From: Ruditapes philippinarum
Taxonomy: Eukaryota
DNA: 64,000 bases
Assembly (NCBI RefSeq): GCF_026571515.1
Contig: NW_026863698.1
Coordinates: 1-64,000 of the forward strand
Direction: 5' to 3'
Shown: piece by piece, positions 1-24,637 of the stretch
How the letters are laid out: each line of letters starts with the position of its first letter
Numbering within the stretch: position 1 is the first letter of the stretch
Notes under the pieces: model-generated
What the model was told of the DNA's origin: nothing
Seen by the model: the letters and a program-made list of their open reading frames with translations, nothing else
Databases searched by the model: none
Translations under genes and position numbers: made by a program

Positions 1-346
1 AAGTTCCGCCCATTGTTTTCCTCGTTTGGGCACACGCTTTTTATTACTTGGGGACCCAATACGCCGCTTTTCATGGAAATGGCCGGTAGTGTCACATTGA
101 AGGTTCCATGATAACCGCCGTATGAACACATCTGCGGATGTTTCTAAATTCAAAAATTTACTATTTCATGTTTAAATGTTGAATTCTGCTTAAGCCGGAT
201 GCTAGGGGGCGGGTGGACGGTAACTTGCACTTTCCAGTACCGTCCATGAAACAGGCTCAATCAAACCGAGCCTGCAACATTTTCAATTTTGCCGTGTTGG
301 GCTCTCTTTAGGGATTCTGTATTTATCTATTTAATAAAACCTAACA

Positions 347-471
347 AAATCTTCACTATCCATGTGGGATTCCTTTGAGAGTTTACCCTGGATAGACTTT
401 TCTTATTAATTAAAAGTATCTTCACTACTCATCTGGGATCCCTTTGAGAGTACACCCCGAGTAGACTTTTC
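347..471. repeat. Two-copy ~70 bp imperfect tandem duplication
   Basis: atcttcacta..cat.tgggat.cctttgagagt..accc.ga.tagactttt occurs twice. Confidence 0.7.
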
Positions 472-1061
472 AACTTAAAATGAATATGTTTACAAATGAT
501 TACACGTGCACAACAAAAAGTGTTTGTATTCTTTTAATAACAAAATCCTTTCGTCTTAAACGAAAATGACGAAGCAACTTTATTCGCTCCTTCTCGGTCA
601 GGTGTGGAAGATAATTGCCTTCCAGAATCGATAACAACGTCCTCATCTTTGTTTGATGACACTGACCCTACGACCTCAGGAAGGTCTAAATCAGCATTTG
701 CCCACTTACAACATTTAGCCAACCTATTTTCTATTACTTTACATGCATTACATTTACAAAAAACACCTTTTAGTATGGGTGCTGTCAAGTTTTTCTCCAA
801 CCGAGGTTTGATCCTGCGAACGGCACCAAAAAATATTTAAGTTAATGTAACGTTATTCTTAAAATAATTAACAAACGAAAACGATCGTCATAGTGATTTA
901 TTCAATTACTGTCCTTAACATAAGTTAGGTAATTCAAGAACAGAACTACAAGAGACTCCACACTTCTAAAACAATACAATGCTTTTTATTAATGACTTTG
1001 CCCAAACGTGCTTATGACAGCTAAATGACATGCCAAAGTAGGGCCAATCACTTTTAGTGTA

Positions 1062-1285
1062 GCCGCCTCCGTGGTCGAGGGGTTTAGAGTCGATGACTTC
1101 TAATCCAGTTACCTCTCTGGCGTGGGTTCGATCCCCGGGAGATGCTTTGGTAGTTTTAGCGCGGAGGAAGGTAGTCTAGTACTGGTGTAACTCTCCAGGA
1201 ACGATGGTTAGGAAACTACCCGCCTATATGACTGAAATACTGTTTGGAAAAAGGCGTAAAAAATCAAACAAACAAAACAAAACAA
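1062..1285 (+). mobile_element. tRNA-derived SINE (old copy)
   Basis: A-box-like gtggtcgaggggttt, B box GGTTCGATCCC, and 3' tail tatatgactgaaatactgtt...ggcgtaaa followed by (CAAA)n. Confidence 0.75.
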
Positions 1286-1349
1286 GCCATGATGTTGATG
1301 ATGATGAACACCTAAAAAAATAAAAAGGGAAAAATGGTTTCATTCTTGT

Positions 1350-2516
1350 TTAGATCTTAATTTGTGAGGATGGGCGATGAAGAACTGCTGGAGAGAATGC
1401 AAATAAATCAACTGATTCCAGGGATTCCCAGAGATTCTTGTGAGTGCATTAGTGGAACAATGGGAATTCTCCACTTGTTGTCTGGGTACAGCAGCTTGCA
1501 TCTCTACTACAACTTCATCTGGTATTTTATGTCCTCTTCCTCTCCGTCTCTTCTTTAATTGTTTTAAACAACATTATAATGATAGCACCAATGAAAAATA
1601 ATGATGACGATGAGGCTAATTGATCATGATGACATAAACTATGAATTAAAAAAAACTTAAAAGAATTTACAGCTTCCTCATAAAAATTTTCATTGCTTTG
1701 TGTAGGTTCAAGATATGTTTCAGTAAAGAGGCAGTCCTATGAATTGAATTTTGAACTGATTCCATTTCAAATTGCACTATCTTACTATTGTTTATCACTA
1801 TTCTCATGAATTATTATAGGCTTAAAGGATTTATGATATTTTCTATAAATGTATACTAAATATGATTATGAAAATCAGAAGTAATATACTTAAAGTACCT
1901 ATTAAACTCCAAAAAACATCTTAAACATGTTCGAGCCTTCATTTTTAACATCAGTAAATATTTTTACAAGGAACAGAAGTTGTAAACACATTATTAAAAC
2001 ACTGATACTTGAAAAGTGGTATTGGTTTTATAAATAATATACAAAGGAGTGATATTACCTTTGGATAGGGAAGCAGGTGGGTTTGGATTTAGAGTTGTAG
2101 ATTCTAGGTTGTAGTTCTTGGGTTGTAGGTGGGTTTTTGGTTTGGGACTCATAGATTCTGGGGATGATGGGTAATGATCTTTTGTTTCTTGATCGGTTGT
2201 GTAATCATCAGCTGAAATGATAAAAAATAGAGGGATTGGCAATAAATTCAATCTTGTTTATAAAATGATTATTTAACTAATGCGTTATTATTAGCTGAAA
2301 GGAAATAATATTTTAGAGAAACATTTATTTCCGTAGAAGTATTCAACTAAAGTTTCTTATCAGTTTACTATCCTTTAAAATTTAAAATAGTAAGAATCAC
2401 TAAGTATAACTTTCAGTGGTGAATATATTTTAAGATTTCAATACAACATGATCACTATAAAAGTACACACCTGCTGATGTTGTTGTGATGTCTGCCATAC
2501 CATGTACCATATGCTG
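1350..2516 (-). pseudogene. Decayed spliced gene for a probable single-pass membrane protein with Pro/Ser/Thr-rich stalk
   Basis: Exon ~2060-2211 (DDYTTDQETK...PPASLSK) has a canonical cag acceptor and gtaata donor, phase 1-1. A short exon lies at ~2472-2514. A hydrophobic stretch (..FIGAIIIMLFK) followed by KKRRRGRG is readable at ~1500-1640 only across frameshifts. Confidence 0.35.
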
Positions 2517-2800
2517 TAAGAAACATACATAAAATAACAATCTAGAATTAAAAATTTAATAGAGAGATAAATCACAACAGTCTCATACAGATCTATGCAA
2601 TTTATTATAACTTAAGTCACTTCAAACAACCTCGTTGTTGGACTAACCTTTTGATGACATAGTGTGTTGATATAACACATTCATAGTCCTGGGTTCAATC
2701 CCAGGCAGAGACATATATAGAGTTTTCTCCACTAAATGACTGGTGTATAACATAACACCGAGTTATCATCACTTTTTTGTAATTTCAGTGTGCTATTTAA

Positions 2801-5102
2801 ATGAAAACTGGACAAGCAGCTCACATGAATTGTAATTTACAATGCAAACAAGTTAATTTTATTCCAGTAATTTTTCATAACTTGAAAAATTTTGATGCAC
2901 ATTTATTATGTCAAAGTGTAGGATCCTTCAAAGATTATAAAATAAAATGTATACCACAAACCATGGAAAAATATATTAGTTTTAGTGTAGGAAGTCTTAG
3001 ATTTATTGACTCCTTTGCATTTTTACCATCTTCTCTAGAGACACTTGTTGATAATTTAACTCAAGATGGATTAAAAGGTTTTAAACACTTTCAAACTGAA
3101 ATCAAAGATCATACAGAACTGTTATTAAGAAAGGGGGTTTATCCCTATGAATACATGAACCAATGGGGGAAATTTGAAGAGCAACAGCTTCCTCCCATGC
3201 ACGAATTTTACTCGTCACTTACAAATGAAAATATTTCAATGCAAGAGTATGAATATGCTGTACGAGTTTTCGAAGCATGTGGTTGTAAGTCGTTAGGAGA
3301 ATATCATGATCTATACTTGAAAACAGATGTATTATTGCTAGCTGATGTGTTTGAAAATTTCAGAGATATGTCATTAAAATGTTATGACCTTGATCCATGT
3401 CACTTTTACACCAGTCCTGGTCTTAGCTGGCAGGCAATGTTAAAAATGACTGACGTTAGCTTAGAACTCATGACGGATATAGACCAAATTCTGTTTATTG
3501 AGAAGGGTATTCGAGGAGGGATCAGTCAGATTTCCAATAGATACAAAAAAGCAAATAATCCTTATTTAAGTGAGTATGATCCCACAAAAGAAAAGAATTT
3601 TTTGGCATATTACGATATAAATAATTTATATGGTCTGTCGTTATCTGATAGATTACCAATAGGTTTCTTTAGATTTTTATCTGAGGAAGAAATTAAATCT
3701 TTTGATGTTAGGAAAATACCAGAGGATGGATCTAAAGGATATATTTTGGAAGTAGACTTAGAATATCCAGAGAACTTACATGATAGTCATAATGACTATC
3801 CTTTGGCTCCAGAAAGAAAATTTATACCTAATGAAAAATTATCACCTTACGCACAACGTGTATTGAAAAAGCTTCATGGAAAACAAGCAGATGATCCAAT
3901 ACCCCCTAGAGCGAAAGTTGAAAAACTACTCACCACTCTTGAAGATAAAGAAAAGTATGTACTCCACTATAAGAATCTACAGCTGTATCTACGTCTAGGG
4001 ATGAAGCTGAAAAAAATTCACAGAATATTAGAATTTCAACAAGAAGCGTTCATGAAACCGTATGTTGAGTTCAACACAAACATGAGAAAACAGGCTAAAA
4101 CGACCTTTGAGAAGAATTTCTACAAATTGATGAATAATTCTGTGTTTGGTAAGTACATTCTGTTTAATACTGTATATTTCTATATAAGTAAACATTCTAG
4201 ATAATAATTAAACATTCTAGATAATTAATAAACATTCTAGATAATAATTAAATATTCTAGATAATAAATACATTGTATTTCTATAATTACAAAATGAGCT
4301 TACTCAGATTCGACCGTTACTAAATTCACATTTATTTTTACTTTCAGGAAAGACGATGGAGAATCTTAGAAAGCATCGTTCAGTTGAATTGGTACATACA
4401 GAAAAACGCTTAAGGAAGGTATCAGCCAAATCTACCTACAAGCTACATCGAATTTTCTCTGAAGATCTTGTTGGAGTAGAATTAAACAGATTGAAAGTAA
4501 AACTGAACAAACCTATATACATTGGGATGACTGTTTTGGACTTATCCAAAAGGAGCATGTATCATTTCTTTTATGACCATTTAAAAGAATTGTATTCCGA
4601 CAATGTTTCCTTACTTTTCACTGACACTGACTCTTTATTCATTTCATGTAAATGTGAGGATCTATTCCAAGATATGTATGATTATGCTCATCTTTTTGAT
4701 ACTTCTGACTTTCCGAAAGATCACTTTTTACAAAGTGATATCAATAAAAAAGTTATGGGGAAAATGAAAAGTGAAACCAATGAAAAATGTATTTCAGAAT
4801 ACTGCGGTCTCAGATCGAAAATGTATGCTTTTAGTTGTGATGGTAAAGAAGACAAACGTGCCAAAGGTATAGCAAAAGTGGTTGTCAAAAAAGACTTAAA
4901 ATTACAGCATTATAAAGATGTATTATTCAATGATTCTCAATTAGTTTCTCGAATGAATACATTTCGCAGCCATAATCATAAAATTTATCTCGAAAATATT
5001 AAGAAGATTGGACTATCTTGTTTTGATGATAAGAGGTACTTATTAGAGGATGGTATTACATCGTTAGCGTATGGACATTACAAAATAGAAAATACTAATT
5101 AG
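2801..5102 (+). CDS. Protein-primed family B DNA polymerase (Polinton pPolB), N-terminally truncated, 2 exons: join(2801..4148,4348..5102)
   Basis: Motifs HNLKNFD (ExoII), YLKTDVLLL (ExoIII), RKGVYPYEY, RGGIS, YYDINNLYG (motif A), FTDTDS (motif C), GLRSKMY, KGI and DDKRY are present. Removing intron 4149-4347 (gtaagt...ttttactttcag, phase 1) restores motif B KLMNNSVFG-KTMEN. Confidence 0.95.
4189..4270. repeat. ~20 bp minisatellite (taaacattctagataataat) x4 inside the polymerase intron
   Basis: Direct reading of repeated units. Confidence 0.85.
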
Positions 5103-5211
5103 ATATTTATTCTATCAGCTATGACAGTTCAGAGAATATAAATATTTCACAGCACACCCATCAACCAAACAACTTTTTATGTTTTTTGTTTGTTTTCTCT
5201 TCTTTTCCGTC

Positions 5212-7216
5212 TTATTGTGCAAGTGTAACCTAAAAAAATGAAATATTAATGTGTATAACAATTATTCTTATTGTCATTATATTAATGTGTAGAACTACTA
5301 TTATTACCATCACATTAATGTGTTTACCATTTTAAATGTTTAATAAAGAGTTTCAACAATTCTGTCTCAGTATCTTTTTTATCTTTAGAAATGTCTTACC
5401 GGAATGGCGTAAAAGATACTGTCCTCCCCCTCGAATTGGTCATCCTGGTTATTATATATGGCGACCTAAGAATGTTAATTAAGATGAATATGTAAATGTG
5501 TACATACTATTATATATCTCAAATATTTTACATTATTTGCAATTCATTTAAATTATTGCTAACAAAAGATGAAATGTATTAATTAGCATATAAATTAAGC
5601 AACAGGTGAAATGTATGTTAAAGTATTAATTAGCATATAAGTATTAGTTTAATCAACTTACACTCCAGCCTCTTCAGCAGACTGATATTATCTTAAATTT
5701 AAGATGACTTATTAATATGCAAAGATGTTATTTACAAATATGATATATTTTTATACTATAAATTATAAAATGAAGTGGTATGGAGTAAATATATACTTTG
5801 ATGTTTACGTTAGGATAGGTTGAAAGATGAATCTTGCACATAAACTTACGGCTTGAGCAGAAACAATCTGCTGTGGTTGTTGCATCTGCTGTGGTTGTTG
5901 CATCTGCTGTGGATGTTGCATCTGCTGTGGTTGTTGCATCTGCTGTGGTTGTTGCATCTGCTGCTACTGTTGTTGTTGAGGTTGTTGCATCTGCTGTGGT
6001 TGTTGCATCTGCTGCTGCTGTGGTTGTTGCATCTGCTGCTGCTGCTGTTGTTGTTGAGGTTCTTGCATCTGCTGCTGCTGAGGTTGTTGCATCTGCTGCT
6101 GTCGCTGTTGTTGAGGTTCTTGCATCTGCTGCTGTCGCTGTTGTTGAGGTTCTTGCATCTGCTGCTGTCGCTGTTGTTGAGGTTTTTGCATCTGCTGCTG
6201 TCGCTGTTGTTGAGGTTCTTGCATCTGCTGCTGTCGCTGTTGTTGAGGTTGTTGCATCTGCTGCTGATGCTGTTGTTGAGGTTCTTGCATCTGCTGCTGA
6301 TGCTGTTGTTGAGGTTCTTGCATCTGCTGCTGTCGCTGTTGTTGAGGTTCTTGCATCTGCTGCTGTCGCTGTTGTTGAGGTTCTTGCATCTGCTGCTGTC
6401 GCTGTTGTTGAGGTTGTTGCATCTGCTGCTGATGCTGTTGTTGAGGTTCTTGCATCTGCTGCTGATGCTGTTGTTGAGGTTCTTGCATCTGCTGCTGATG
6501 CTGTTGTTGAGGTTGTTGCATCTGCTGCTGATGCTGTTGTTGAGGTTCTTGCATCTGCTGCTGATGCTGTTGTTGAGGTTGTTGCTGCTGTACCTGCAGA
6601 TGTGGGTTTTTTTAGAAAATATGAACATGAATAAACTGAATAAATATTGAATATTTCAGAACATATGTTTCACATCCTTAAGATAAAATGTTAGCACTTG
6701 GATTCTTAACACATACAAGTTCAAAATATGTGTCTTCAAACCACTTAATGCTATTTTTTATGACCAATAGTTTAAACATCAACGATTCCCTAAAACGGAT
6801 GCAAATACTGGTTAAATTTCCAGGAAGAAGTCACCCTGAGCGTGATTAATATAAGTTGTAAGAACTTGTTACACAATCAATGTAAAATAAATAGGTTTTA
6901 ACCAAATGATAACAATAACTTAGAAATATTCTTAACAAACCTGTGGTGATGTACTGTTGAATATATCCGCATAATGTTCCACTCTTAGGAGTAATTTCCG
7001 AAGTTCTTCAATCTCATCTTTATTAAATGTTATAGATTTTGATTTTGAAAAATCGAATTTTCCCCCAGGGCTATTGAAGCAGCCTTTTTTGTCTGATATA
7101 TGCACATATGTCCTCCCGTTAAACGGGGTGATACATATCTCCTTATTTTTCCCAAATTGGGAAGATGCTTTAACTATTCTGTTATCATAACTTCTCTTTT
7201 CGGTGAAACTAGCCAT
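5212..7216 (-). CDS. Multi-exon PC4/Sub1-like domain + polyglutamine-repeat protein (premature TAG at 5964-5966)
   Basis: Exon 1 6941-7216 has a PC4-like pattern FGKNKEICITPFNGRTYVHI...KSITFNKDEIEELRKLL and a gtttgt donor. Exon 2 5850-6593 (cag|GTA, in frame, Gln repeat) ends at a gtaagt donor. A mini-exon at ~5662-5681 has uncertain phase. Exon 5400-5465 reads VAIYNNQDDQFEGEDSIFYAIP. Last exon 5212-5229 reads VTLAQ*. Confidence 0.7.
5866..6590. repeat. Coding minisatellite: ~15 x 33 nt (MQEPQQQ[H/R]QQQ) plus 18-nt units (MQQPQQ)
   Basis: Direct reading; it explains the multiple overlapping ORFs on both strands. Confidence 0.95.
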
Positions 7217-7307
7217 TTTTAAACAAGGAATAGTAACCAATAAACTCAATGAATAGTAAGCAGTAAACTCAATGAATAATTTGAGGAAATTGTTTAAAAA
7301 CAAAATG

Positions 7308-7506
7308 TTTTATAGTCATCAGCTGATGTTCTTTCGTGGTCAATTTTTTAAACTGAAAATATACTACCCTTGTGATTGGTTCATTAAAAAGCATCTATAT
7401 TAGGGGCATTTTCATTGGTTAGTGTTTTATATCTTTACATCAATTTACTTAATTTACTTTTCCATTGGTTCTGTAATAAACATCTCTGAAAACAAATTTA
7501 CATTGG
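7308..7506 (-). promoter_or_regulatory. Putative Pol II promoter of the PC4-like gene: TATA box plus four CCAAT boxes
   Basis: CTATAAAA (minus strand, 7308-7315) lies ~90 bp upstream of the ATG. CCAAT occurs on the minus strand at 7375, 7414, 7464 and 7502. Confidence 0.5.
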
Positions 7507-7919
7507 ATAATCAACCAAACGAGTTAAAGTATTTGCATTATTAAACTATTGTCGTTTTTTTTTTTTTTTTTATATCTATTTTACGGAATGGTAAACGTAA
7601 ATGAACTAATCCTACAAGTGCCGCAAATGATGAAGTAGTTAATATTGCTGCAAGAAAATGAAGCTCAGCTGAAACAACACCTTTTTTTCTCTATCACATG
7701 TAACATTTAGTACCTTACAACCTTTCATATCTTTTCGCTACATTAAATTATTTGAGTTAATTAAGCGATAACAAGTTTGACCTTGAACTTTATATATTAT
7801 AACACGCAGTAGAAGAAAAAACGGTAAAAGGAAGAAAACGCAAAGAAAACTGCCATGTATTTGATATTTTTGTATCTGCTACCTACTTTGGGCGTAAAAT
7901 CAGTGCAGACATCTATCGA

Positions 7920-8306
7920 CATGACAGCTGATAAAACAGTGTGTGTCTTTTTATTAAGAAGTGGTTGAACTAATAGAAAACGAGAGAAAATATATATTAC
8001 AACTAATAAGTATTTTATTCCATCATTATATTTTGAAATATTTTCAACTGACATAAGATCCATATCAGCTTGATCGTTTAAACCTGCTACTTGTACATTT
8101 GGGGTATTATATCTATGTCTTATTTGTTTTTGTACTGCATACGCATCTTGATTATTCAACCATTTCTTGATGAAATTCAAACTAAATACTCCAGGGTATT
8201 TTTCAGATAATAGTTTTAACAACTTTGTAGCACCTAAATAACTTCCAGGATTTTTTACATCAAAATAGTACTCCAAGAGAATGTGTTCCTTCTGTGTCTT
8301 ATCCAT
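7920..8306 (-). pseudogene. Polinton-type retroviral-like integrase, N-terminal part only (3' truncated)
   Basis: From ATG 8306: YYFDVKNPGSYLG...WLNNQDAY...QADMDL...NDGIKYLLVVIYIFSR...PLLNK matches the Polinton integrase N-terminus. Similarity is lost after ~7920, so the rest of the DDE core and the chromodomain are absent. Confidence 0.85.
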
Positions 8307-9203
8307 TTTTATATGCCCGAAAGGGCATATTATGTTATACCCCCTGGCGTCCGTTTGTCTGTCCGTCCGTACGTCCGTCCGTCCGTTAGCAATTTGGTTT
8401 CCGGAGCATAACTTAAGTTCCATTTGGCCCACAATGTTCAAACTTCATAGGATGATTGCCCATATTGGGTAGAAGACCCCTATTGATTTTGGGGTCAAAA
8501 GGTCAAAGGTCAAGGTCACTATGACCTTAAAACTGAAAACAGTTTCCGGAGCATAACTTAAGTTCCATACGACCCACAATGTTCAAACTTCATAGGATGA
8601 TTGTCCATATTGGGTAGAAGACCCCTTTTGATTTTGGGGTCACAAGGTCAAAGGTCAAGGTCACTATTTCCTTGATACTGTAAAACACAATATTCAAACT
8701 TCATAGGATGATTGTCCATATTGGGCAAAAGACCCCTATTGATTTTGGGGTCACTAGGTCAAAGGTCAAGGTCACAATTACCTTAAAACCAAAAACAGTT
8801 TCCAGAGCATAACGGAAGTTCCATTTGGCCCACCATATTCAAACTTCATAGGATGATTGTCCATATTGGGTAGAAGACCCCTATTGATTTTGGGGTCACA
8901 AGGTCAAAGTCACTTTTACCTTAATACTGAAAACAGTTTCTAGAGCATAATTAAAGTTCCAATTGGCCCACAATATTCAAACTTCTTAGGATAATTGTCC
9001 ATATAAGGTAGAAGACCCCTATTGATTCTGGGGTCACAAGGTCAAAGGTAAAGTTCATTAATAATAACTTAAGTATTAATCAACCTACAGCTGTAAAACT
9101 TTATAGGATGAACAGCGAATTCCCATGTCTTACAAATGCTTCATCCTTACTAAAAAAACAACACTTTCGGGCATATAATGCTCCGCCTAGCGGTGCTCTT
9201 GTT
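8307..9203 (+). mobile_element. Non-autonomous Helentron/pearl-like element with internal tandem repeats, inserted immediately upstream of the integrase ATG
   Basis: T-run start, subterminal IR tatatgcccgaa / ttcgggcatata, (GTCC)n microsatellite, ~5 units with ggggtcacaaggtcaaaggtcaagg, and 3' hairpin gctccgcctagcggtgc followed by tcttgtt. Confidence 0.85.
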
Positions 9204-9359
9204 GATACTTGTAAATGAAGAAATATGCTTAAATGTGAAATGGATTAGACAAGACTGAACACATTCTTTATTTCAACTATTAAAAAATAACAAGACACTT
9301 TTTATTACAACCTTTTACTAAGATAAAAACAAGTGCTTATATGTTATTTTACATGATAA

Positions 9360-9813
9360 TTATTTGTTTGCGAGTACCTGTTTGTGCAAGTAAATCACTT
9401 CGTGTGAAAGGTTAAGTCCTTGTACTAAGACTTCCCATGCTTGCAACACTTTGGTTTCATCTACTTCCAGTAACATTTCTTCAAAGTAAAAGTCATAGGC
9501 TTGCTCGTCATCATACATAAGGTCGCTCATGATACAGTCATGTTGTGTCAGTGAAGGGTGATCTATAAAACATCCATAGCAATGTTTCTTCACTATCATA
9601 CTTTTTACGTTAATCAATGCTTTTGCATATACAAAGTCAAAATATGAGTTCATCAACATCACGCTAGTTGCAGGAGGTGTACAATGGTTAATAGTAACAT
9701 GACTTTGCTTCATTTCATCCAGCTCCTCCTCATCAAATTGTGTAAGAGTCACTCCGTTCATTGTCACTATCCACATATTCATTGTTTTCAATTTCTAATC
9801 TCAGATTTGCCAT
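9360..9813 (-). pseudogene. Polinton accessory ORF with CxGCxxxHPSxxxHxC motif, frameshifted near the 5' end
   Basis: Motif HCYGCFIDHPSLTQHDC. The probable true start ATG 9813 (MANLRLEIENNEY..) is out of frame with the rest. Confidence 0.6.
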
Positions 9814-9942
9814 GTTTATACCAGTAGTGCAAGGGCAAAAATGTTTTTGAAGTTTTACAGTGGTTAACTTATATATACGTACGTCTATACAGCTTGGTTT
9901 TCGAAATAACGGTTATTTCAAAATTTGTATTTTCACTTTGCT

Positions 9943-10299
9943 CTACCGCCAAAAAGTGAGGTGCTCTCCCACTGAGCTGCTCCATTTTAGATCCTCATCT
10001 AGAAGAGAAATATTTTCAGACCGATTTGATTGTCCAACCATTTTCAGAAATAAAAAACTTTTTGAATGAATACCGTGTTCTTTCATTGGATCGTCTGTCT
10101 TTTTCCATTGATTGAGTCTAATAGCACAGGAAAAACATTGTACAATATCTCCTCTCCCCGTATAATAAAATCCAGCAGATGCCAGTTCATATTTATTAGG
10201 TTGAATTTGTTGAGACCAGGATTCGAACGTTTGTAGTCTATTCTCATACAGTTTAAGCTCTGGTGATTTAAACTCTATACCTAAACCCGTACATTCCAT
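9943..10299 (-). CDS. Single-BIR-domain inhibitor-of-apoptosis-like protein (fourth Zn ligand Cys replaced by Phe)
   Basis: RLQTFESW...LASAGFYYTGRGDIVQCFSC...WKKTDDPMKEH is the BIR consensus. The ORF is intronless and has no RING. Confidence 0.9.
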   Translation of the reverse strand: MECTGLGIEFKSPELKLYENRLQTFESWSQQIQPNKYELASAGFYYTGRGDIVQCFSCAIRLNQWKKTDDPMKEHGIHSKSFLFLKMVGQSNRSENISLLDEDLKWSSSVGEHLTFWR

Positions 10300-10602
10300 T
10301 ATGACTGTCCTTGTAAAAATGAACCTAACAACTGAATGCTTTCCTTTAAATCACACAAAGATTCAAACTGTTTCATATCTATAGATAATGTGGATTTTCC
10401 TTTTTGTAAAATAATCACCGTTTTACTTCGTTTTTTCTTAATAGTTTATAAATGTTTATCATCTAAGCTACAACGAACCTCTTTTGTTATTGGACACCAA
10501 TTAACAGTCTGAAAGCCATAAGTTTTCAAATAATATAAAGATTCCTCACTAAACATCAATTGTGCTTGAGCCATGCTTTTAGAAACAAATAAACAATCGT
10601 CT

Positions 10603-10878
10603 TTAAATATTACGAAGCATTCCTTCTTCTAATGATTCGTCTGCCATTAAATTTGGGGTAAAATTACACAACTCGTGCCACCAATGTCCGTTTTGTAAAT
10701 ACCTATTTGCCGCAAAAGTAAAGCGTGATGGATAAGCTTGTAATAAACCAATCATATAATAATGCGACCAACGAAGGCTATGAAAAACATCTTGTACTTC
10801 TGCATCTACCCAAGGATATCTTTCATCTTCATTTAACCAAAATGAATTACTGTTTACAGCATAACGTCTCAAATCCAT
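10603..10878 (-). CDS. Small Trp/Tyr-rich orphan protein (paralogue A)
   Basis: Aligns by eye with 11190-11477 (MDLRxY..FWxNxxERxxWxDxEV..YMIxLLxxYPSxF..HWWHELCxFTxNLM); protein-level conservation supports coding. Confidence 0.75.
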   Translation of the reverse strand: MDLRRYAVNSNSFWLNEDERYPWVDAEVQDVFHSLRWSHYYMIGLLQAYPSRFTFAANRYLQNGHWWHELCNFTPNLMADESLEEGMLRNI

Positions 10879-11189
10879 TCTGATGTTAAAAAGACAATCA
10901 TCAAGTAATCTTTAACGTAAAGCATTCAACAACCGTAGTTTATACCCCTCGCTTAATTTCAAACTGGTTGCTTACATTTAAAAAAGATCACTAGTTATTT
11001 CCCGCCATATTTGACCGCCAACTGTTTGGAATACATTCACGTCCAGCCACAATCAAAAGTCGTGATGAAAATTAGGTTCTATACACAAGATAATGCATAG
11101 TTTTCAATGAACAATCACAACAGTACTTGAAAGATTTAAGTGTTTTACTAAAAAACTTGTTTCGACAGTCATGTTAGAAGTGGAACGAT

Positions 11190-11477
11190 TTATTGTCTAG
11201 GTATAAAGTCTTCTACATCATAAGCTTGATTTTTCATTAAATTTGAAGTAAAATAACATAACTCGTGCCACCAATGCTCACCCTCTTCATATCTATAAGC
11301 TACTTCATTAAATTCTGAGGGATAATGTCTAAGAAGATCAATCATATAAGACCGTGTCCATCCAACATGATAATTAACACTGAACACTTCGTCATCAGCC
11401 CATGAGTGTCTCTCGTAATCATTCACCCAAAAGGATTCAAAAATGCTACCGTCTATATCATAACTTCTCAAATCCAT
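11190..11477 (-). CDS. Small Trp/Tyr-rich orphan protein (paralogue B)
   Basis: Paralogue of 10603-10878; shared upstream motif atttcaaactg.ttg.t..catttaa. Confidence 0.75.
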   Translation of the reverse strand: MDLRSYDIDGSIFESFWVNDYERHSWADDEVFSVNYHVGWTRSYMIDLLRHYPSEFNEVAYRYEEGEHWWHELCYFTSNLMKNQAYDVEDFIPRQ

Positions 11478-12148
11478 TCTTAAAAGTTAAAATATATCCA
11501 ACACCACTGATGGCTAATTAATACCCCTAGACCGTTGTCAATACAATAGCTCTCCACCAAAAGCTGAAAGGTGATATTGATCGTTTGCATTTCAAAAACT
11601 GATTTCAAACTGATTGTTATCATTTAAGAAAAACCCCGCTCTACTAGTTTAAATCGATATAGTTTAAAAAATGGCGCTAAACCCTGTCATCTACCACGTC
11701 GTCTGCTACACCGCCATCTTGGAACCTTGAGTCATCGTCTCACGTTACTAACGTCGGCCATATTGCGCCGCCGGCGCAAGATGGCCGCGAAATTATCAAT
11801 TTTACACTACTAATATTTACAGATTTATCTTTCTTTGAACTTAGGATTTTCTTTAAGAAATATTATAACTTCTTTACTTTTTAAGGTATATACTTCAAAC
11901 TTCAAATATATGTTTCTTATCATTACACACATGTTGTGTGAAATGTTCATAACCCAAGCATGACTTTTTTTAGAATTATTCCTCTTGATCTTGGAATTTA
12001 TGTTAACAAATGGTATTTTTTTACTATAACTTAATACATAATTATACATAATTGGTTTTTCTTTCATAGTTTTGTCCTCCTTACTGCGTCCAGTATTTTA
12101 TTAGTCGAGCTTGGCTGTCTCCTGTGACAGTTCTTGTTAGAAATTGAT

Positions 12149-12330
12149 GTTTCTATTTTTAGAAATTGCGTAATGTTTCTATTTTTAGAAATTGCGTAAT
12201 GTTTCTATTTTTAGAAATTGCGTAATGTTGCTATTTTTAGAAATGCGTAATGTTGCTATATTTAGAAATTGCGTAATGTTTCTATTTTTAGAAATTGCGT
12301 GTTTCTATTTATAGAATTGCGTGTTTCTAT
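12149..12330. repeat. 26 bp minisatellite (tttctatttttagaaattgcgtaatg) ~7 copies
   Basis: Direct reading; flanked by Helentron-like 3' hairpin ends at ~12104-12138 and ~12450-12485. Confidence 0.85.
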
Positions 12331-12710
12331 TCATATATATATACAAAATAGATAAACAAAACTTATGTGACAGACCAACTTAATTTATAAAAAGGAAACG
12401 TTAAGATATGTTCAAACCTTTCTATGTTTGCGTTTAGAAAAAGTAAAAAGTCGAGCATTGCCCCCGCCCGGCGGTGGCTCTTGTTTAATCTACTGTCGCC
12501 ATCTGTAATGTATAAAGAATAAACAGTATTATACCTTCGTTAATTGTGAAGACCTATTTTTTATAATACGTGTTAGCAAATCCCACCAAGCGCATTTTGG
12601 AAAGAAAGACCTGAGTTCGTATAACCACAGAGTTGGGTATACATTGTAAAAATACTTCACACTCTTCATTATTTAAATGTCCATATATGAACATAATTAT
12701 GTGGTAATCT

Positions 12711-14160
12711 TGAGGTAACAAAAATATATTTGCATTGATACATGCTGGTACATATTTCTTTGTTTATGTTAATATAGCTTTAAAATAAAAGATAAACTCA
12801 AGTTATAATTAGAATATATGATACGTATGTTCAAGTATTAATTAGCATATAAATTTTGAATCATATCAGTAATGGCTTAATCAACTTACTTAAGGGGATG
12901 ATACTCCAGTGACCTTAGCAGCAGCATCAATTTGTTGTTGCTGAGGTGGTGGTGTTTGTTCCGGTTGCTGTTGCTGCTGTCGAAGTGGTTGTTGCTGTAG
13001 TGGTTGTCGCGATGTTGTTAGTGATGATGATGTCTAAAACATGCAATCTCAATTTATAACATAACATTATACATATAAAAAATATACTATAACATTGTAC
13101 ATGCATCTTACTAAAAATGTTAGCACTTATACTTAGATACATACATCTTAAGCATATACCTTTCAATGAGTAAATGATATTTTGTCTATGATCAATAATT
13201 TCTAACATCATAAATATAAAGTATAAAACAAACCTGTGTGAATGTCTTATTTGAAATGTTGCATTTTTTATATTTTAAAAAATGAAAATGTCTTACTGGG
13301 GTGGCTAAGAAGTACTCGTCATTCCCATCAAACTTGTCTTGAGGATAAAGTGTAATCTGGAGGTAACAAAAATATATTCGCATTGATACATGCTGGTACA
13401 GATTTCTTCTTTTTTTATGTTAATATATCTTTAAAATGAAAGATAAACTCAAGTTATAATTAGCATATATGATACGAATGTTAAAGTATTAATAATCATA
13501 TAAATTTTTAATCATGTCAGTAATGACTTAATCAACTTATTTAAGGGGGTGATACTACAGTGACCTCAGCAGCAGCAACAATTTGTTGTTGCTGAGGTGG
13601 TGGTGTTTGTTCCGGTAGTGGTTGTCGCGATGTTGTTAGTGATGATGATGTCTAAAACATGCAATCTCAATTTATAACATCAAACATATAAAAAATATAC
13701 TATAACATTATACATGCATCTTACTAAAAATGTTAGCACTTATACTTAGATACATACATCTTAAGTATATACCTTTAAATGAGTAAATGCTATTTTGTCT
13801 ATGACCAATTATTTCTAACAACAAGCGAGGTGATATCTAAATGCTATAAAATAATAAAATAAAATAAAAAAAATGACAAACCTGCGTGTTGGTTAATTTA
13901 TCATGATAATAATCCACTCTACCTAGCAACTTTTTCAGTTCATCAATTTCCTCCTTGCTGAAGGAAATAGATTTGGTTTTTGTAAAGTCAAATTTACCGC
14001 TAGGGTTGTTAAAACAACCCTTGACGTCGGATATGTGGATACATGTATTCCCATGAAAAGGGGTCATACATATTTCTTTATTCTTTCCAAATTTTGAAGA
14101 AGCTTTCACTAGAACGCTATTGTAATTTCGTTTTTCAGTGAAACTAAACATACATGACAT
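12711..14160 (-). pseudogene. Second PC4-like/Gln-rich gene (paralogue of 5212-7216) with an internal ~650 bp tandem duplication
   Basis: Exon 13882-14160 is highly similar to exon 1 of the first copy, with the same gtttgt donor position. A Gln/Pro-rich exon occurs twice (~13540-13652 and ~12890-13033). Exon ITLYPQDKFDGNDEYFLATP is homologous to exon 5400-5465. Confidence 0.7.
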
Positions 14161-14785
14161 GTGGCATTATAAGGTAAACCCACTAGTGGGTATATGTCAG
14201 TCTGTTTGTTGGATTTCTTTCCCTTGACGGATAGCGTCTTTCTCTTCCTTCTCTTGCTTGCAATGGAATTTGTTCATCGTGATTATAAAATCCATACTGT
14301 ATCCAATTAAAAAAATATGATAAATGTCTGTCATAAAAATGTATAAACTAATCACTGTTGTAAACATGATAAGTTACATATATCTCACGCGTGTTAATTA
14401 ATACTGTCCTGTTTATTGAGAGTTTAAATATCAATATAATTATATCGTTATTCGTGTAAATTAAAATATAATTCTTGTTTTAAAAATATATTATTCTTGA
14501 TTAATACATCGTTTCTGTTTCGTTTGAAAAAAGACAGTTAAATAAAAATATTTATATTTGCGCTCCCTGGCTATGCCACATGAAACACAAGAGCAAGTGG
14601 ATTGAAAATGTCTGGCATTTAACCAATGCCAGACCTTTTATAAACACTAGGGGCGCGTTTGTTTTGCATAAACCGGTTTCAGTAGTAGGTTTAGGTTTTA
14701 TGACAAATTATTTTGAAACCAAAACTAGTTTAGATGGTTTGCAGTTGCTACTACAAATGCATGGTTTTACAAATGGTTTGCAATC

Positions 14786-15937
14786 ATGGCAGAACTTGTG
14801 GCAGCATTGCAGGGAATTTTTGAGGATGAAGATAAATCAGACGCTAGTCATGTTTATTTATCTTCCAGAAATCACGCGATATATGCTCAGATCAGTGGTG
14901 TGCTTGCATTTAGTACACTTCGTCATGAAAAAAGTAGAATTCGTGGTTATGTGGAGACTGTCTACCGTCAATACACCATTGATGATTTCAAAGACCGTTT
15001 TCGAATGAACAGAGACACATTTGAAAAACTCTTACATATGATGTCACCTTTTTTGAAGAACTCAAGGGGTGTACACCAGATTACGGCTGAGAAAAAACTA
15101 CTGTTGTTCATCAAATATCTTTCTACGCAAACTACGTTTCAGCAACTAGCAGACATCTTTGGTGTGTGTGAAACAAGTGTCCATTCTGTTATCCACGATG
15201 TGTCTGAGATGATTTGCGTCAAACTTTTGCCCGAGTTGATAAAATGGCCAACAGGTAAAAAAGCCAAGGAGACAATAGATGGCTTTCAGCAACTAGCTGG
15301 CTTTCCTGGGATAATGGGCACTATTGATGGTAGTCACATTCCCATCCGTACACCGTCAGAATTTCCAGAAAACTACATCAATCGTAAACAGTACCCTTCT
15401 ATTGTTTTACAAGCCGTGTGCGATAGTAAGCTACTATTCATCGATGTCTTTTGTGGTTGGCCAGGATCAGTCCATGACTCAAGAATCCTTAAAAATTCCC
15501 CACTTATGGATAAAATTGAGGCTGATGTTTCGCAAGTTTTCCCAGGTAACACGCATCTCCTCGGAGATTCAGCATATGCCCTAGCATCTTGGATGATGGT
15601 TCCTTACAAAGACTGTGGCAATTTAAACAAAGATCAAAAGACATACAACTACATTCACAGTTCCACAAGGATGTGTATTGAACGTGCTTTTGGTGCGTTG
15701 AAGGGGCGGTTTCGAAGGTTAAAGTTTATTGACTTGAAGGACATTTCTTGTATTGTACATATTGTACTTAGCTGTTGCACCCTCCATCAGCTTTGTGTCC
15801 AGTGCAGAGAAGACCTGCTGGATTACATCACTGAAGGAATGGCTGAAGCTGACGAGGCTAACTATTTTGAGAACTTCATGCCACTTTGTAGCAGTGCAGA
15901 GATGAAAAGAAAAACGATTGTTTGCACTCTCAAATGA
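14786..15937 (+). CDS. Harbinger transposase (HARBI1-like DDE nuclease), intact, 383 aa
   Basis: Motifs FRMNRDTF, IDGSH, NRK, GSVHDS, LLGDSAY, YNYIHSSTRMCIERAFGALKGRFR and LHQ. Confidence 0.95.
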   Translation: MAELVAALQGIFEDEDKSDASHVYLSSRNHAIYAQISGVLAFSTLRHEKSRIRGYVETVYRQYTIDDFKDRFRMNRDTFEKLLHMMSPFLKNSRGVHQITAEKKLLLFIKYLSTQTTFQQLADIFGVCETSVHSVIHDVSEMICVKLLPELIKWPTGKKAKETIDGFQQLAGFPGIMGTIDGSHIPIRTPSEFPENYINRKQYPSIVLQAVCDSKLLFIDVFCGWPGSVHDSRILKNSPLMDKIEADVSQVFPGNTHLLGDSAYALASWMMVPYKDCGNLNKDQKTYNYIHSSTRMCIERAFGALKGRFRRLKFIDLKDISCIVHIVLSCCTLHQLCVQCREDLLDYITEGMAEADEANYFENFMPLCSSAEMKRKTIVCTLK

Positions 15938-16321
15938 CAGCTGTGACTTGTAGTACAAACCAAAGCGATCAACAGCAGTATACAGATTTTGAGCTTTATT
16001 CAGCAGCTACACTTGTTTCAGGCTATCTGACTATGTATGTGTTTCAGGATATGTGACTATGTATGTGTTTCAGGCTATGTGACTATGTGTATCATTCAAT
16101 ATTGTTCACTTCTTACAGCAAACAATAGTGTGTTACCAATAAAATTGTTTTATTTCTATATTGTCTCGTGAAGTTTAATCCAGAGTCGGAGACCAATACA
16201 GTTTCCTAGGTACCTAACCGAACTGTTTTCCTTACCATTCACATGTGATTACTGACTTACCAGTACGGATAATAACAGATACATAAATGTAGGATGAAAC
16301 TTCATAATACAAAAGATCTTA

Positions 16322-18438
16322 CCCAGCAGGCACATCAACGTTGTTTCAACGTTGAATTATGGTCAGATTTCAACGTTGAAATAAGGTTTGATTTATATTC
16401 GGATTTGAAAGTTGAAACAACGTTGAAATTTCAACGTTGATACAACGTTGCAGCTTCAACGTTGGCACAACGTTGAAGTTTCAATGTCATTTCAACGTTG
16501 AAAACCCACCATACATTAATTTTTGGATATAAAGCAAAGTAACCAAGTTTAACAAAATGTCAAGACAATATTAAATACTTCAGATATTTTATTTCAAAAA
16601 TACAGTTCAAGTGCAGCTTAAATTCACTTTAATAGTTTAACAATTAAGCTACAATCTGTTCCAATCTTTTCTTCTAGATCTTTCTGGGTATGTCAAGTGT
16701 TTGAGTACTTCTTTGGCTGTCTCTTACTGCTTCTGCAAATAAAAATAAGAAGTTTGTAGTTAAAAGTGACTTGGTCAATCTCAAATTATACATATACTTA
16801 CTCAACTTAGTGATTTGTTTTTATCTTAAAATGCTTTTCTCTAAGATTTATATCATAAAACAGCATAGTAATTGAAACGTAGCTAAGTTTGATATTGACA
16901 GCAACTACTGTATATAAGACAACAAAATCTTTTTAAAAAGAAGCTATTTAAAAGTCTCACCTATGATTGGTAAGAAAAACTGCTCCCCGTCAGTTCCTTG
17001 CAGCATATTCCCAAGAAATTAATATTATAGGCTCTAGCTAAGACCATTTTATGCAGCATCCTGAAATCAGCAAACGTCATGTAAATTTTATATTAATAAT
17101 GTTACAGGAATATTCCTAAAAAATATATTTTAAGACAAGATAAATATCCAGTTGTTGAAAAATTTATACTTTGTATTGTAAAGAAATTCAAATATATAAA
17201 TTAATAAGAATAAATTTCAATTTAACAAACCTGACAGTCCTTTTCATGTTGAATGTATGGTGTACAGGCTACAGGTGCAATACTGTAAATTTCAGCCAGG
17301 ACCAGGATCTAGAATATAAAATAATATAATAATAAAATAGAAATAGATTTATTATACCCCTTAAATTTACGACTATTAAACTTTAAAGTTTAACACTCAA
17401 ATTTGTTATTTAACTTAATAATAATCATTATAATGTGTTTTTATCAAACTAATTAACACTGTATTATACTATCAATAAAATATAAACATAGTTATATATA
17501 TTGACGAATCGTCTTGGGACGTAAATTAAGTGGGCCTAACTACTTAATATGTTTCAATTTTAAAATTGATTAAATTCTAAATAGGATATAGTACAGACAA
17601 ATGTTTAATAATATGAAAAATAAATTAAAGAAAGACAAGATTTGTAAAATCATAAATTGCCAAGGACATCAATAACTTCATTCTTACAAGGCCTACCGAA
17701 CCCAAATCATTCAATAAGGTCGCGAAAACGTGTCAAATCAACTCAATCATGAATTTATATCTCTCATTTATTTCATAAAGTAAATTAAAGTAGAATTTAA
17801 AGAATAAATAATAATATTTTAGAAAATAGTCAGTAAACTAAAGTAAAACATAGCGGTAATACCTTCCAAATCCAAATAAATTGCCAATCGTGTTGTTTTC
17901 AAATTTTCCAAACAGCGCCACCATTTGCACGAACGATAATCATAGACAAAAACAAACAAAATCATAGACCGCAACAATTACTTCCCCTGACCAGCGTTAT
18001 TTTATAAACGGGGTTTTGACTAATACCAATTTATTAATTAATATTATTCATAAAGAACTAAAAAATAAAACAACAAACAACAAAACATATTAACTAATAT
18101 TTAAAGCGTTAATAGAAAGTGAAAAATTATTTCCAACTTTATTTGTTTAAGCGCTATTTTTGAATATACGGAAAAAGATTGTAACGCAAATTTTCCTGAC
18201 AAAAATCACTTACAGACTAATTCAATAAAGGAATAATATCACAAAATTAGTGGTATAAAAGTTTATATAATGATTAAACTAAATGTAAAACTTCGACCAT
18301 AAACAACGTTGAATCAACGTTGTATATACATTGGCAATATATCCGTATGGTCGTCCATAGTTGAATATTGGTTGAACAACGTCACGACCATATTTCAACG
18401 TTGTTTCAACGTTGAAACAACGTCGAGTGCCTGCTGGG
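16322..18438 (-). mobile_element. Non-autonomous DNA transposon (probably CMC/EnSpm-like) nested in Harbinger 1
   Basis: TIR CCCAGCAGGCAC / GTGCCTGCTGGG, TSD TTA, and many subterminal CAACGTTG palindromes at both ends. Decayed spliced exons lie inside. Confidence 0.8.
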
Positions 18439-18500
18439 TTATTTCTCATTTTATTAAACAGTTAACCAAAAACAATTATAACAGGTACAAATGAATGACA

Positions 18501-18940
18501 AACAAGAAATGTCACAGAACGTGACGTATGCCCCCACGAAATTGACCATTGGCCTTGAAGTGTGACCTTGACCTTGGAGGTACGGACCTGGGTCATGTGT
18601 GCTCTGCACGCCATCTTCTACAAATCAATTTAAAAAACCACCAGTAATCCACCACACATAAATGACAACGTTATGGACAGGACAAAAGAAAAAATATGCA
18701 TATTTGAACTTTGAACTCCAAGTGTGACCTTGACCTTGAAGGTACGGACCTGGGTCTTGCGCTCTGCACATCGCCCATTTATAATGAATACTTCTGCCAA
18801 GTTATATTGAAATCCAAACAGAAATGACAAAGTTATGGACCGGACAAGAATGTTGTTGCCCGGACAGACACACACACACAGACACACACACACACGGACG
18901 GTCCAATTTTAAGATGCCACCCCTTCGGGGGGCATAAAAA
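18501..18940 (-). mobile_element. Short Helentron/pearl-like element (reverse orientation)
   Basis: aacaag end with hairpin gtcacagaacgtgac, IR tatgccccc / gggggcata, (AC)n tract, and two internal repeat units (gtgtgaccttgaccttg..ggtacggacctggg). Confidence 0.75.
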
Positions 18941-19074
18941 CATGAACAATGATTTCCTTGGGTGAAATTTCAGAAACATACCGAGTTTTAATCAGTCTTT
19001 AGTTCTACAATGAATTTCAAGTTTTTTAAAACAGCCATTATCCGATCCAAAAGCAGAACACAACATATCAATGA

Positions 19075-19347
19075 TTTGTTTTGTTTTGGGTTTTACGTCA
19101 CATCGACACAGTATAGGTCATATCGCGACGTTCCAGCTTTACTGGTGGAGGAAGACCTCAGGTGCCCTTCCGTGCATTATTTCAGGCACGAACGGGCACC
19201 TGAGTAGAACCACCGACGTTCCGTAAGCTAGCTGGATAGCTTCCTCACATGAAAGAATCCAAAGTCCCTGTCGGGATTCGAACCCACAGCGGTGAGGGGC
19301 AAGTGGTTTGAAGTCAACGACCTTAACCACTCGGCCACGGACGCCCC
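19075..19347 (-). mobile_element. tRNA-derived SINE (MetaSINE-like), young copy with 14-bp TSD
   Basis: Minus-strand head GGGGCGTCCGTGGCCGAGTGGTTAAGG...GGTTCGAATCCC and (CAAAA)-like tail. TSD caacatatcaatga at 19061-19074 and 19351-19364. Near-identical to the copy at 48757. Confidence 0.92.
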
Positions 19348-19524
19348 TATCAACATATCAATGAAAAACTTCAAAAAATATAAAATGGTTTAACATAATG
19401 TGTTCTGTTGATCATCAATTAGCTTAAATCAAGATCAACACATAGACATGTGCAAGGTTAAAATTAAACTGACGATGCTTCTTATACATGGCCACCATTA
19501 AAATTTACCAAAACCAGCTGTGCA

Positions 19525-19785
19525 CACAAAATGTACCAAGAGTGAGTTTTAAACATTTGTTATTTAATAATTACAAAGAAATAAAATTCACTGGTGTGAA
19601 AATAATTAAAATGCAAATACAATATCTATATTACAGATATGCGACTTCAATTTGCATACAAAATGTACCAAGAGTGAGTTTAAACATTTGTTATTTAACA
19701 ATTACAAAGAAATAATATTCAATGGTGTGAAAATAATTAAAATGCAAAATACAATATCTATATTACAGATATGTGACTTCAATTT
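19525..19785. repeat. Two-copy ~135 bp tandem duplication
   Basis: acaaaatgtaccaagagtgagttt...tattacagatatg.gacttcaattt occurs twice. Confidence 0.85.
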
Positions 19786-20023
19786 CTAAGTGTGTACTGC
19801 CTTGTACATGGATGAAAATCTAAAGTAAAAGTTCAAACTTCCAACAAAACATTGCAAGAAAATGCCATAAACAAGAGGGCCATGATTCCTCTGTATCACT
19901 GAACAGAGGAGCATGAAGAAACAGAAAATATTCACTAGAAAAGTGACCCAAAGATTGCTCCTACAAATCTTCCATGTCTCTCTCCACTTCTGTCAAAAAA
20001 CAAACCTTGTAAAGTGTTCACTC

Positions 20024-23490: not shown

Positions 23491-24637
23491 ATGGTGGACA
23501 ATGTATCCAGATATCTAATTTTAGAAGAATTAATGTGTTCTGAATACGATGACAATATTCTTTTGCTACAAAAAATAACCAGGAACACAGTTTGTAGCAT
23601 GGCTGTTGCCACCACAACATTTAGAGAAAGAAAAAAAACGAATCCAGAACTATGTGGAGGGAGTATTGCCATATTATAGTGTTGATGATTTTAAGGACAG
23701 ATTCCGAATCAGTAGGGAAACATTCGACTCGTTAGTAGAACAAATGATTCCATACATAGGTAAAGGGGAAATATGCGTTGAAAAGAAACTGCTAATATAT
23801 GTCAAGTATATATCAACGCAACAGACGTATCAAGCTTTGGCAGATATATTTGGGGTATGCGAGTATTCTGTTCACAAATGCATTCATGAAATTTCAGAGA
23901 AAATTTGTAAACACTTGCTACCAGATTTAGTGAAATGGCCAGAGAAACGGACAGCTGATAGAACTGTAGATGGATTCCAGGAAATCAATGGTTTTCCAGG
24001 TGTCATTGGAGCGATTGATGGAAGTCATATCCCTATCCGCACCCCAACAGAATTCCCAGAAAACTATATTAACAGAAAAGGTTACCCTTCCTTGATACTT
24101 TAAGCAGTTTGCGACTGTAACCTTAAGTTTTTAGATGTATATCGCGGGTGGCCTGGGTCAGTGCACGATGCACGAGTCCTTAGAAATTCCCCGTTATTCA
24201 AGAGTGCTTCAGCAGCTGAAAGTGAAGAAATCTACATGTTTCCCATCAACACACATCTACTTGGAGATTCAGCCTATCCACTATCCAACAGGTTAATGGT
24301 ACCTTTTAAGGACTTTGAAAACCTCAATGAAATCCAGAAAAGGTACAATTACAAACATAGTTCAACAAGAATCTGCATAGAAAGAGCTTTTGGAGCTCTG
24401 AAAGGACGCTTTCGCAGACTGAAATTTGTGGATCTGACAGACATCAAAGCTATTGTACATGTTGTACTAAGTTGTTGTTGTCTTCATCAACTTTGTCTGT
24501 ACAACAGTGCTGAGGACATCCTAGAATTCATACAGGATAGCGCCGAGGACAACGAAGAGGTCAACAATTTTATGGACATTTGTAAAACATGTGCGTCAGC
24601 TGACGTGAAACGAAAAGCCATTGCCGACCTTTTGTAA
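23491..24637 (+). pseudogene. Harbinger transposase pseudogene (frameshift in the A-run ~23630, nonsense TAA at 24101)
   Basis: Three ORF pieces align to 14786-15937 (IDGSHIPIRTP, GDSAY, IERAFGALKGRFRRL). Confidence 0.9.

Follow-up and report, generated by a model that had tools for sequence, protein, structure and literature searches.

Protein-primed strand-displacement replicons such as adenovirus and phage phi29 need a single-stranded DNA (ssDNA)-binding protein, and the folds of the adenovirus DBP and the phi29 SSB are unrelated to the PC4-like domain that concerns us here. For Mavericks, no ssDNA-binding protein was found described in the literature we searched. In the portions of the accounts of Mavericks/Polintons (adintoviruses, polintoviruses) that we consulted, these elements share a pPolB, an rve integrase, and an IAP accessory gene (PMC8502044, PMC6431247), and the polintovirus-related ssDNA-binding protein that appears in the latter is a Helitron RPA. 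Dimers of PC4 bind juxtaposed ssDNA, and their multimerisation unwinds DNA, for which they have been likened to adenovirus DBP; a PC4 homologue also serves in the replication of phage T5 (PMC7549692, in the sections consulted). The SSB of E. coli consists of an OB fold, a disordered linker of 56 residues that is needed for phase separation, and an acidic tip of nine residues that binds partners (10.1101/2022.01.17.476650, likewise consulted in part). A full-text search of the published literature found no link between PC4 and Polintons, the one paper with both terms using PC4 to label a cluster, although supplementary genome maps may already label such genes, and the term "PC4" is absent from the main texts of PMC8502044, 10.1101/2024.03.25.586562, PMC11071308, 10.1101/2023.10.06.561300, and 10.1101/2025.04.19.649669. 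The PC4-like gene family reported here is apparently undescribed in the literature searched.

A PC4-like gene in a decayed Maverick

The gene lies in a window, by which we mean the whole stretch of 64,000 nucleotides that was analysed, corresponding to the first 64 kb of contig C12185; the assembly searched comprises 1.41 Gb. C8727, C13927, and C6363 denote related loci of the same assembly. The features of the window are as follows, with coordinates, strand, and description:

2801-5102, plus: 3' part of pPolB (Pfam DNA_pol_B_2, PF03175, E=9.9e-20)
About 4149-4347, plus: pPolB intron, with a donor position also found in C8727 and C13927
5106-5111, minus: AATAAA poly(A) signal, four bases past the pPolB stop (5100-5102)
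5212-5229, minus: coding part of predicted exon 5, VTLAQ followed by TAA; C13927 has VTLLQ and a stop at the equal place
5400-5465, minus: predicted exon 4, with an acidic-aromatic motif (QDDQFEGEDSIFYAIP); homologous exons in C13927 and C6363
5662-5681, minus: predicted exon 3, 20 nt at the strongest donor (GTAAG)
5850-6593, minus: predicted exon 2, 248 codons, a 33-bp and then an 18-bp tandem repeat, Q/P/M-rich frame, donor after 5850
5964-5966, minus: in-frame TAG in the assembly sequence, codon 210 of exon 2
6594-6940, minus: predicted intron 1, GT..AG, phase 0, position and phase equal in relatives
6941-7216, minus: exon 1, ATG at 7216, 92 codons, donor after 6941; divergent PC4-like domain with an extra N-terminal beta hairpin
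7923-8306, minus: 5' fragment of a Maverick integrase that covers residues 15-142 of 381 and is 49% identical to its C8727 counterpart
9405-10577, minus: left-end accessory genes (small ORF, BIR/IAP gene with BIR E=1.1e-20, small ORF), in the gene order of C8727
12890-14157, minus: paralogous PC4-like gene, its exon 1 (14157-13882) 66% identical to that of the window gene

Judged by these genes, the window holds a rearranged and decayed Maverick/Polinton fragment, because the polymerase and the integrase are both truncated and capsid, ATPase, and protease genes, which C8727 has, gave no tblastn match within the window. The hallmarks of such elements are present in part: pPolB lacks its N-terminal ~646 residues and begins at residue 647 of the C8727 polymerase, and the rve integrase is a fragment that by itself gave no match in a Pfam search, while the C8727 integrase matches rve at E=9.3e-11 and also has a chromo match. 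C8727 has, in a row, ORFs for an integrase, a capsid-like protein, a protease, an ATPase, and pPolB, followed by the PC4-like gene on the opposite strand (Pfam: Peptidase_C5 E=1.2e-4, Pox_A32 E=3.6e-4, DJR-like E=0.13). Polymerase exon 2 of the window is 83% identical to that of C13927, 68% to that of C8727, and 55% to that of C6363. A search for inverted repeats bounding the element found no long one in 1-20000, where the window begins at the contig start. It had been predicted originally that the gene is convergent with the polymerase, with its AATAAA beside the polymerase stop, and that it came from a mobile element; the first is confirmed in the sequence, and the second is supported by the homology to Maverick genes.

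What sets the window clade apart from described Mavericks/Polintons is the occurrence of spliceosomal introns in pPolB and the five-exon structure predicted for the PC4-like gene. The pPolB intron interrupts one motif in three elements (4149-4347 of the window, C8727, and C13927), and no sense spliced pPolB transcript was found at C8727 in the RNA-type contigs. Also in the window, at 1672-2070, is a multi-exon Thr/Pro-rich gene, probably for a membrane protein, for which a match of 74% identity lies next to the C13927 Maverick, and this may be another spliced accessory gene of the intron-bearing clade. Beside the Maverick pieces there are Harbinger-type transposase and Myb/SANT ORFs at 14729-15937, 20024-20740, and 23579-24637 (DDE_Tnp_4 E=2.6e-38, Myb_DNA-bind_4 E=2.2e-14).

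In the gene model itself, intron 1 contains a short high-copy repeat at 6842-6880, visible as a read pile. Exon 3 is less certain in length, as the homologous exon of C13927 has 30 nt and use of a weaker GT, two bases before the strongest donor, would shorten the window exon to 18 nt; the difference between 20 and 30 nt is a possible second break in the window copy. The paralogue has a short Q/P exon 2 that ends in a stop, an acidic exon, and an internal tandem duplication.

Likeness of exon 1 to PC4

We consider it very probable that exon 1 is PC4-like by homology. The Pfam PC4 model (PF02229) scored it at 17.3 bits (E=0.003), short of the gathering cut-off of 25 bits, and the domain is not a formal member of PF02229; 6 of 70 family members matched the model at E<=0.05 (best E 0.0031). 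When a profile of five rows was compared with PDB, three of the four matches were to human PC4 over the whole domain, at values (E 0.23-0.61) that are not significant, and profiles of 6 and 70 rows had PC4 among their matches with an unrelated protein first (PDB matches overall, E 0.16-1.5). The top match in the ESM Atlas was a PC4-named cluster (0.90) for two members that are 45% identical to each other, and the neighbours there were mostly phage and bacterial PC4/YdbC ssDNA-binding proteins. Profile-profile comparison (hhalign) with Pfam-positive PC4 domains gave a probability of 54%, then 78% (E=1.8e-5). Among the ORFs of the window and the fetched loci, the sequences ranked by the family profile directly after its own members were canonical PC4 ORFs, the best at E=2.4e-5.

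AlphaFold2 with the five-row alignment (pLDDT 71.5, pTM 0.54) placed strands at residues 4-8, 14-21, 25-32, 35-42, and 60-62 and a helix at 66-86, compared with a pLDDT of 49.5 for the single-sequence model. Apart from the extra strand 4-8, the predicted four strands and helix agree with the description of type II PC4-like proteins, and the modelled sheet, with its basic and aromatic face, resembles that of PC4/Sub1 and of the type II group (the T5 homologue, YdbC). Searches with the structure gave little: Foldseek placed MoSub1 second to fourth (E 0.12-0.18, rmsd 7-8) and PC4 22nd, with nothing at E<=0.001, the best hits of wide fold searches (Z 4.8-5.0) were unrelated sheets, and a viral structure library yielded no match at E<=0.001. 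Such results are unsurprising for a query modelled as a monomer when the domain would fold as a dimer.

Against human PC4, the G-K, F-x-G, and K-x-I-S/T motifs align, together with an aromatic residue at the position of W89. Within the family, aromatic residues occupy the positions aligned to PC4 F(KG) and W89 in 59/70 and 56/64 rows, and basic residues occupy positions 25 and 60 in 64/67 and 65/70 rows. The PC4 D-I-R motif is replaced by H-I-S/N-D, or, over its longer extent, D-I-R-E-Y-W by H-I-S/N-D-x-S-K-C-F, and the family differs further from PC4/Sub1 in its extra N-terminal hairpin, its Pfam scores below the cut-off, and the position of the domain, which is so far a predicted one, N-terminal to a Q-rich tail in a Maverick-borne gene. 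The PC4/Sub1-like fold that had been proposed for exon 1 is thus supported as a likeness, since several weak-to-moderate sequence tests agree and AlphaFold2 predicts a sheet and helix, but it does not extend to Pfam membership or to a clear match in the fold searches.

Relatives, splicing, and the glutamine repeat

Relatives in the same genome share the structure predicted for the window gene. In C13927, exons 2-5 all have counterparts bounded in phase 0, among them the acidic-aromatic exon 4 and an exon 5 of the form VTLxQ-stop, and C6363 has a decayed exon 1 and keeps the acidic exon and the last exon, again facing the polymerase. In the family of C8727, C4543, and C15139, exon 1 is 49% identical to that of the window, the donor is equal, and exon 2 has 55 residues (49% Q); this family ends in different short acidic exons that are without the aromatic motif. 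A phase-0 intron followed by a Q-rich exon thus occurs in three lineages, and in four places (the window, C13927, C8727, and C6363) the PC4-like gene is oriented towards pPolB. Downstream of more distant polymerases, a PC4-like gene was present in 1 of 19 stretches, so most Mavericks of the genome do without the gene at that place. Substitution patterns point to purifying selection on exons 1 and 4: exon 1 gave pS 0.75 and pN 0.18 against the paralogue (89 codons) and pS 0.75 and pN 0.39 against C8727, exon 4 gave pS 0.89 and pN 0.28 against its relatives (22 codons), and the polymerase, as a control, gave pS 0.48 and pN 0.10. By these comparisons, the gene family is real and part of Maverick/Polinton.

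Exon 1 is also found in many sequencing runs of the species, with repeat-type flanks in two other samples. At C15457:70921-74530, units of ~935 bp are arrayed in tandem; each comprises the sequence upstream of exon 1, exon 1 itself, and intron 1, and includes no more than 24 bases of exon 2. Three of its four exon-1 copies are frameshifted or cut, and the tandem joint is also present in run X2.

Outside this genome, a profile search of proteins returned 82 sequences at E<=0.001, of which 80 remained after removal of two repeat-driven false matches; the sole named homologue is from the bivalve Mactra antiquata. By crude thresholds, six of the 80 have a long Q-rich tail (67-220 residues) within one ORF, four a K/S/D/E tail, and five another polar tail, while four end inside the domain and 61 have a short or hydrophobic end typical of intron read-through. 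Because outside homologues carry Q-rich or polar tails, the combination of the domain with a predicted disordered tail is a trait of the family. In a FastTree phylogeny the unspliced members with Q tails form one clade (support 0.97) apart from the window protein, so the outside Q tails may be parallel rather than inherited. A "V after the helix" occurs in 50/80 homologues, counted on protein only and with no chance control, and this pattern hints at a conserved donor. Searches for longer proteins yielded a single sequence, an unspliced read-through of the C8727 family, and none of 526-2000 residues; no homologue gene was found when viral contigs were scanned three times and metagenome contigs twice. 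Six homologues (P0023, P0032, P0040, P0043, P0060, and P0065) have basic or serine/aspartate-rich tails with an R-x-x-P-Y motif, which we take to resemble a PY-type nuclear signal.

Transcripts bear on the 3' part of the gene in the C8727 family, where RNA-type contigs of run X21 contain two minus-strand GT-AG joints between 3' exons (8860/8372 and 8295/8014; depth 6-9, shorter sides of 28 and 32 bases). Across these the frame runs from the Q exon to the acidic end, as predicted. The joints of exons 1-2 and 2-3 were found in the RNA records of no copy, in a comparison that skipped the repeats there, and the joint 6941/6593 of the window copy was likewise not found, no RNA record being listed for 6600-7400. 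Of the sequence words sought for the window copy, X21 contains 0.04 and X22 0.00, values that are no proof of absence. Contigs of X1 and X2 continue across the intron as DNA would. X23 and X24 carry the label RNA-seq, but all 12 of the 12 listed chimeric read piles on a related locus start at GATC, and the two look like proximity-ligation (Hi-C-like) DNA libraries, because of which their flat unspliced cover is no evidence on expression. At C8727:26109-31937, the RNA-type contigs of X21 and X22, a single sample, reveal a spliced antisense transcript of several exons opposite the polymerase, ATPase, protease, and capsid ORFs of the Maverick, with nine listed minus-strand GT-AG joints at depth 11-199. 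In most frames its exons are interrupted by stops, so this is probably a non-coding RNA produced by silencing or read-through.

In its phase-0 frame, exon 2 of the window gene encodes 11-residue MQ[E/Q]PQQQ[H/R]QQQ units and then 6-residue MQQPQQ units, the repeat of 33-bp period comprising 20 copies. Up to the TAG, this frame has 209 residues (68% Q) with a longest pure Q run of 8; a long uninterrupted tract of the homopolymeric polyQ kind was not found, as the 11-residue repeat contains M, E, P, and H/R. Since the TAG stands at 5966-5964, translation of the window copy would stop short of the acidic exons. Of the three frames of the repeat, only the Q frame has a stop. We rejected the open Thr/Ala frame on account of the phase-0 splice and the conserved end of the exon, both of which point to the Q frame; the last codons of exon 2 (QQIVSAQA) match QQIVAAAE of the window paralogue and of C13927. 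Of the fusion as originally predicted, the in-frame splice 6941/6593 keeps its phase-0 joint, conserved in relatives, but the Q frame amounts to 209 rather than ~245 residues; the short acidic exons stand as predicted exons with homologues in relatives, but beyond the TAG and thus not reached here.

All ten assembly matches to an exact 29-base repeat unit are inside the window, the 3' exon region of the gene is single-copy in the assembly, and the relatives have 45-55 residues at the position of exon 2. The very long repeat is specific to the window copy within the assembly, and its expansion is most likely a local event, by slippage or unequal crossing-over, in a decaying copy that no longer works. 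Run X1 has a 13-base deletion in exon 1, and at C15457, the one other place where exon 1 is nearly identical, the tandem array lacks the repeat. The suggestion that a polyQ of ~245 residues drives condensates finds no support, given a length unique to this copy, a stop inside the repeat, a truncated element, and relatives with 45-55 residues; the condensate idea is a better fit to the shorter Q-rich tails of the family and to the unspliced tails of 67-220 residues than to the window copy. The very long repeat, the feature first noted, is the least meaningful part of the gene.

A candidate ssDNA-binding protein for Mavericks

With modest confidence, we read the gene as an accessory gene of a decayed Maverick in which a PC4-like ssDNA-binding domain, a Q-rich linker, and an acidic tip, joined by predicted splicing, would make up the element's own SSB, and of which this copy is broken and its repeat locally expanded. 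That of an SSB for strand displacement is the most likely of the putative roles. The domain of exon 1 would dimerise like PC4, and the dimer would coat the strand displaced by the protein-primed polymerase and help to unwind DNA without ATP. The disordered Q/P linker would make the protein act more cooperatively and might also promote condensates, and the acidic-aromatic tip would, by analogy with bacterial SSB, either contact partners or turn back onto the face that binds DNA. The order of parts is equal to that of E. coli SSB, with a binding domain, a low-complexity linker (about 45-55 residues in relatives), and a conserved acidic-aromatic end, but the domain is PC4-like rather than an OB fold and the gene is eukaryotic and spliced, so that this is analogy, not homology. 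With adenovirus DBP and phage phi29 SSB, the family would have in common the proposed role of ssDNA-binding partner to a protein-primed, strand-displacing polymerase.

The main rival is a transcriptional coactivator, whose domain would bind melted promoter DNA and whose Q-rich and acidic-aromatic tail would recruit host polymerase II machinery to Maverick genes. We think this unlikely as the principal function, and the two roles are not mutually exclusive. Its appeal is that Q-rich and acidic-aromatic segments are classic activation-domain types, that outside homologues have KKRK-type basic motifs and Q/Y/S-rich tails, and that the C8727 family has a PPPAKRP exon, yet the gene faces the polymerase at all four loci, the Atlas neighbours are mostly phage and bacterial ssDNA-binding proteins, and the window protein presumably has no N-terminal extension like that of host PC4. 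PC4 itself is a transcription cofactor, whereas the homologue in phage T5 is a replication factor (PMC7549692, in the part consulted).

Far less probable is that there is no fusion at all, and that the unspliced frame of exon 1, which terminates at TAA 6934-6932, yields a stand-alone protein of 94 residues with the repeat as a non-coding minisatellite downstream. The conservation in relatives of the Q-frame exon 2 and exons 3-5 with phase-0 boundaries, the purifying selection indicated for exon 4, the in-frame Q-rich tails of unspliced homologues, and the spliced 3' exons of the C8727 family all speak against this, even though the joint 6941/6593 is absent from the records examined, the acceptor of intron 1 has a poor pyrimidine tract, the Q frame alone of the three is stopped, and C15457 and one run hold the ~935-bp units of exon 1 and intron with 24 bases of exon 2. 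That the host keeps a 301-residue protein (the domain and the 209-residue repeat to the TAG), its expansion having an adaptive use such as forming condensates or restricting related Mavericks in a dominant-negative way, we regard as highly improbable, for while exon 1 and the first 209 codons are open where the fragment's other genes are truncated, and exon 1 recurs in many runs with repeat-type flanks in two other samples, there is a single locus, the deletion in X1 and the three of four broken C15457 copies point to decay, and a stop well upstream of three more introns would invite nonsense-mediated decay.

Canonical PC4 genes also occur in this genome, which has 75 matches to PF02229. Of 30 loci returned, nine were examined, and eight of these (L049, L050, L052, L057, L062, L064, L066, and L075) have intronless double-PC4 ORFs, most of them Cys-rich at the end, beside a BIR-like gene; four of the eight also have an integrase ORF, and L049 matches Pfam at E=3.9e-25. 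By sequence, the double-PC4 ORF represents a second type of PC4 gene, a canonical one, carried by other Mavericks of the genome. At the C15139 locus (L022:7952-8752), an ORF of 267 residues matches PC4 weakly (E=0.006) and may be a third type of PC4-like gene borne by a Maverick.

Returning to the proposal of a Maverick-encoded SSB, we offer its widest form tentatively and with clear doubt: an intron-bearing animal Maverick clade would encode a family of PC4-fold SSBs, hitherto undescribed and comprising at least 80 clusters at 50% identity, that independently reached the layout of bacterial SSB, with a binding domain, a prion-like linker, and an acidic tip. The family would be the missing ssDNA-binding partner of pPolB, and its tail would nucleate nuclear replication condensates. 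Because the genes are spliced, ORF-based surveys see exon 1 only and miss the tail. The PC4-like family is thus a concrete, small, and expressible candidate for the Maverick SSB, and with a second, canonical PC4 gene in other Mavericks, PC4 folds may be a common Maverick aid to replication or transcription.
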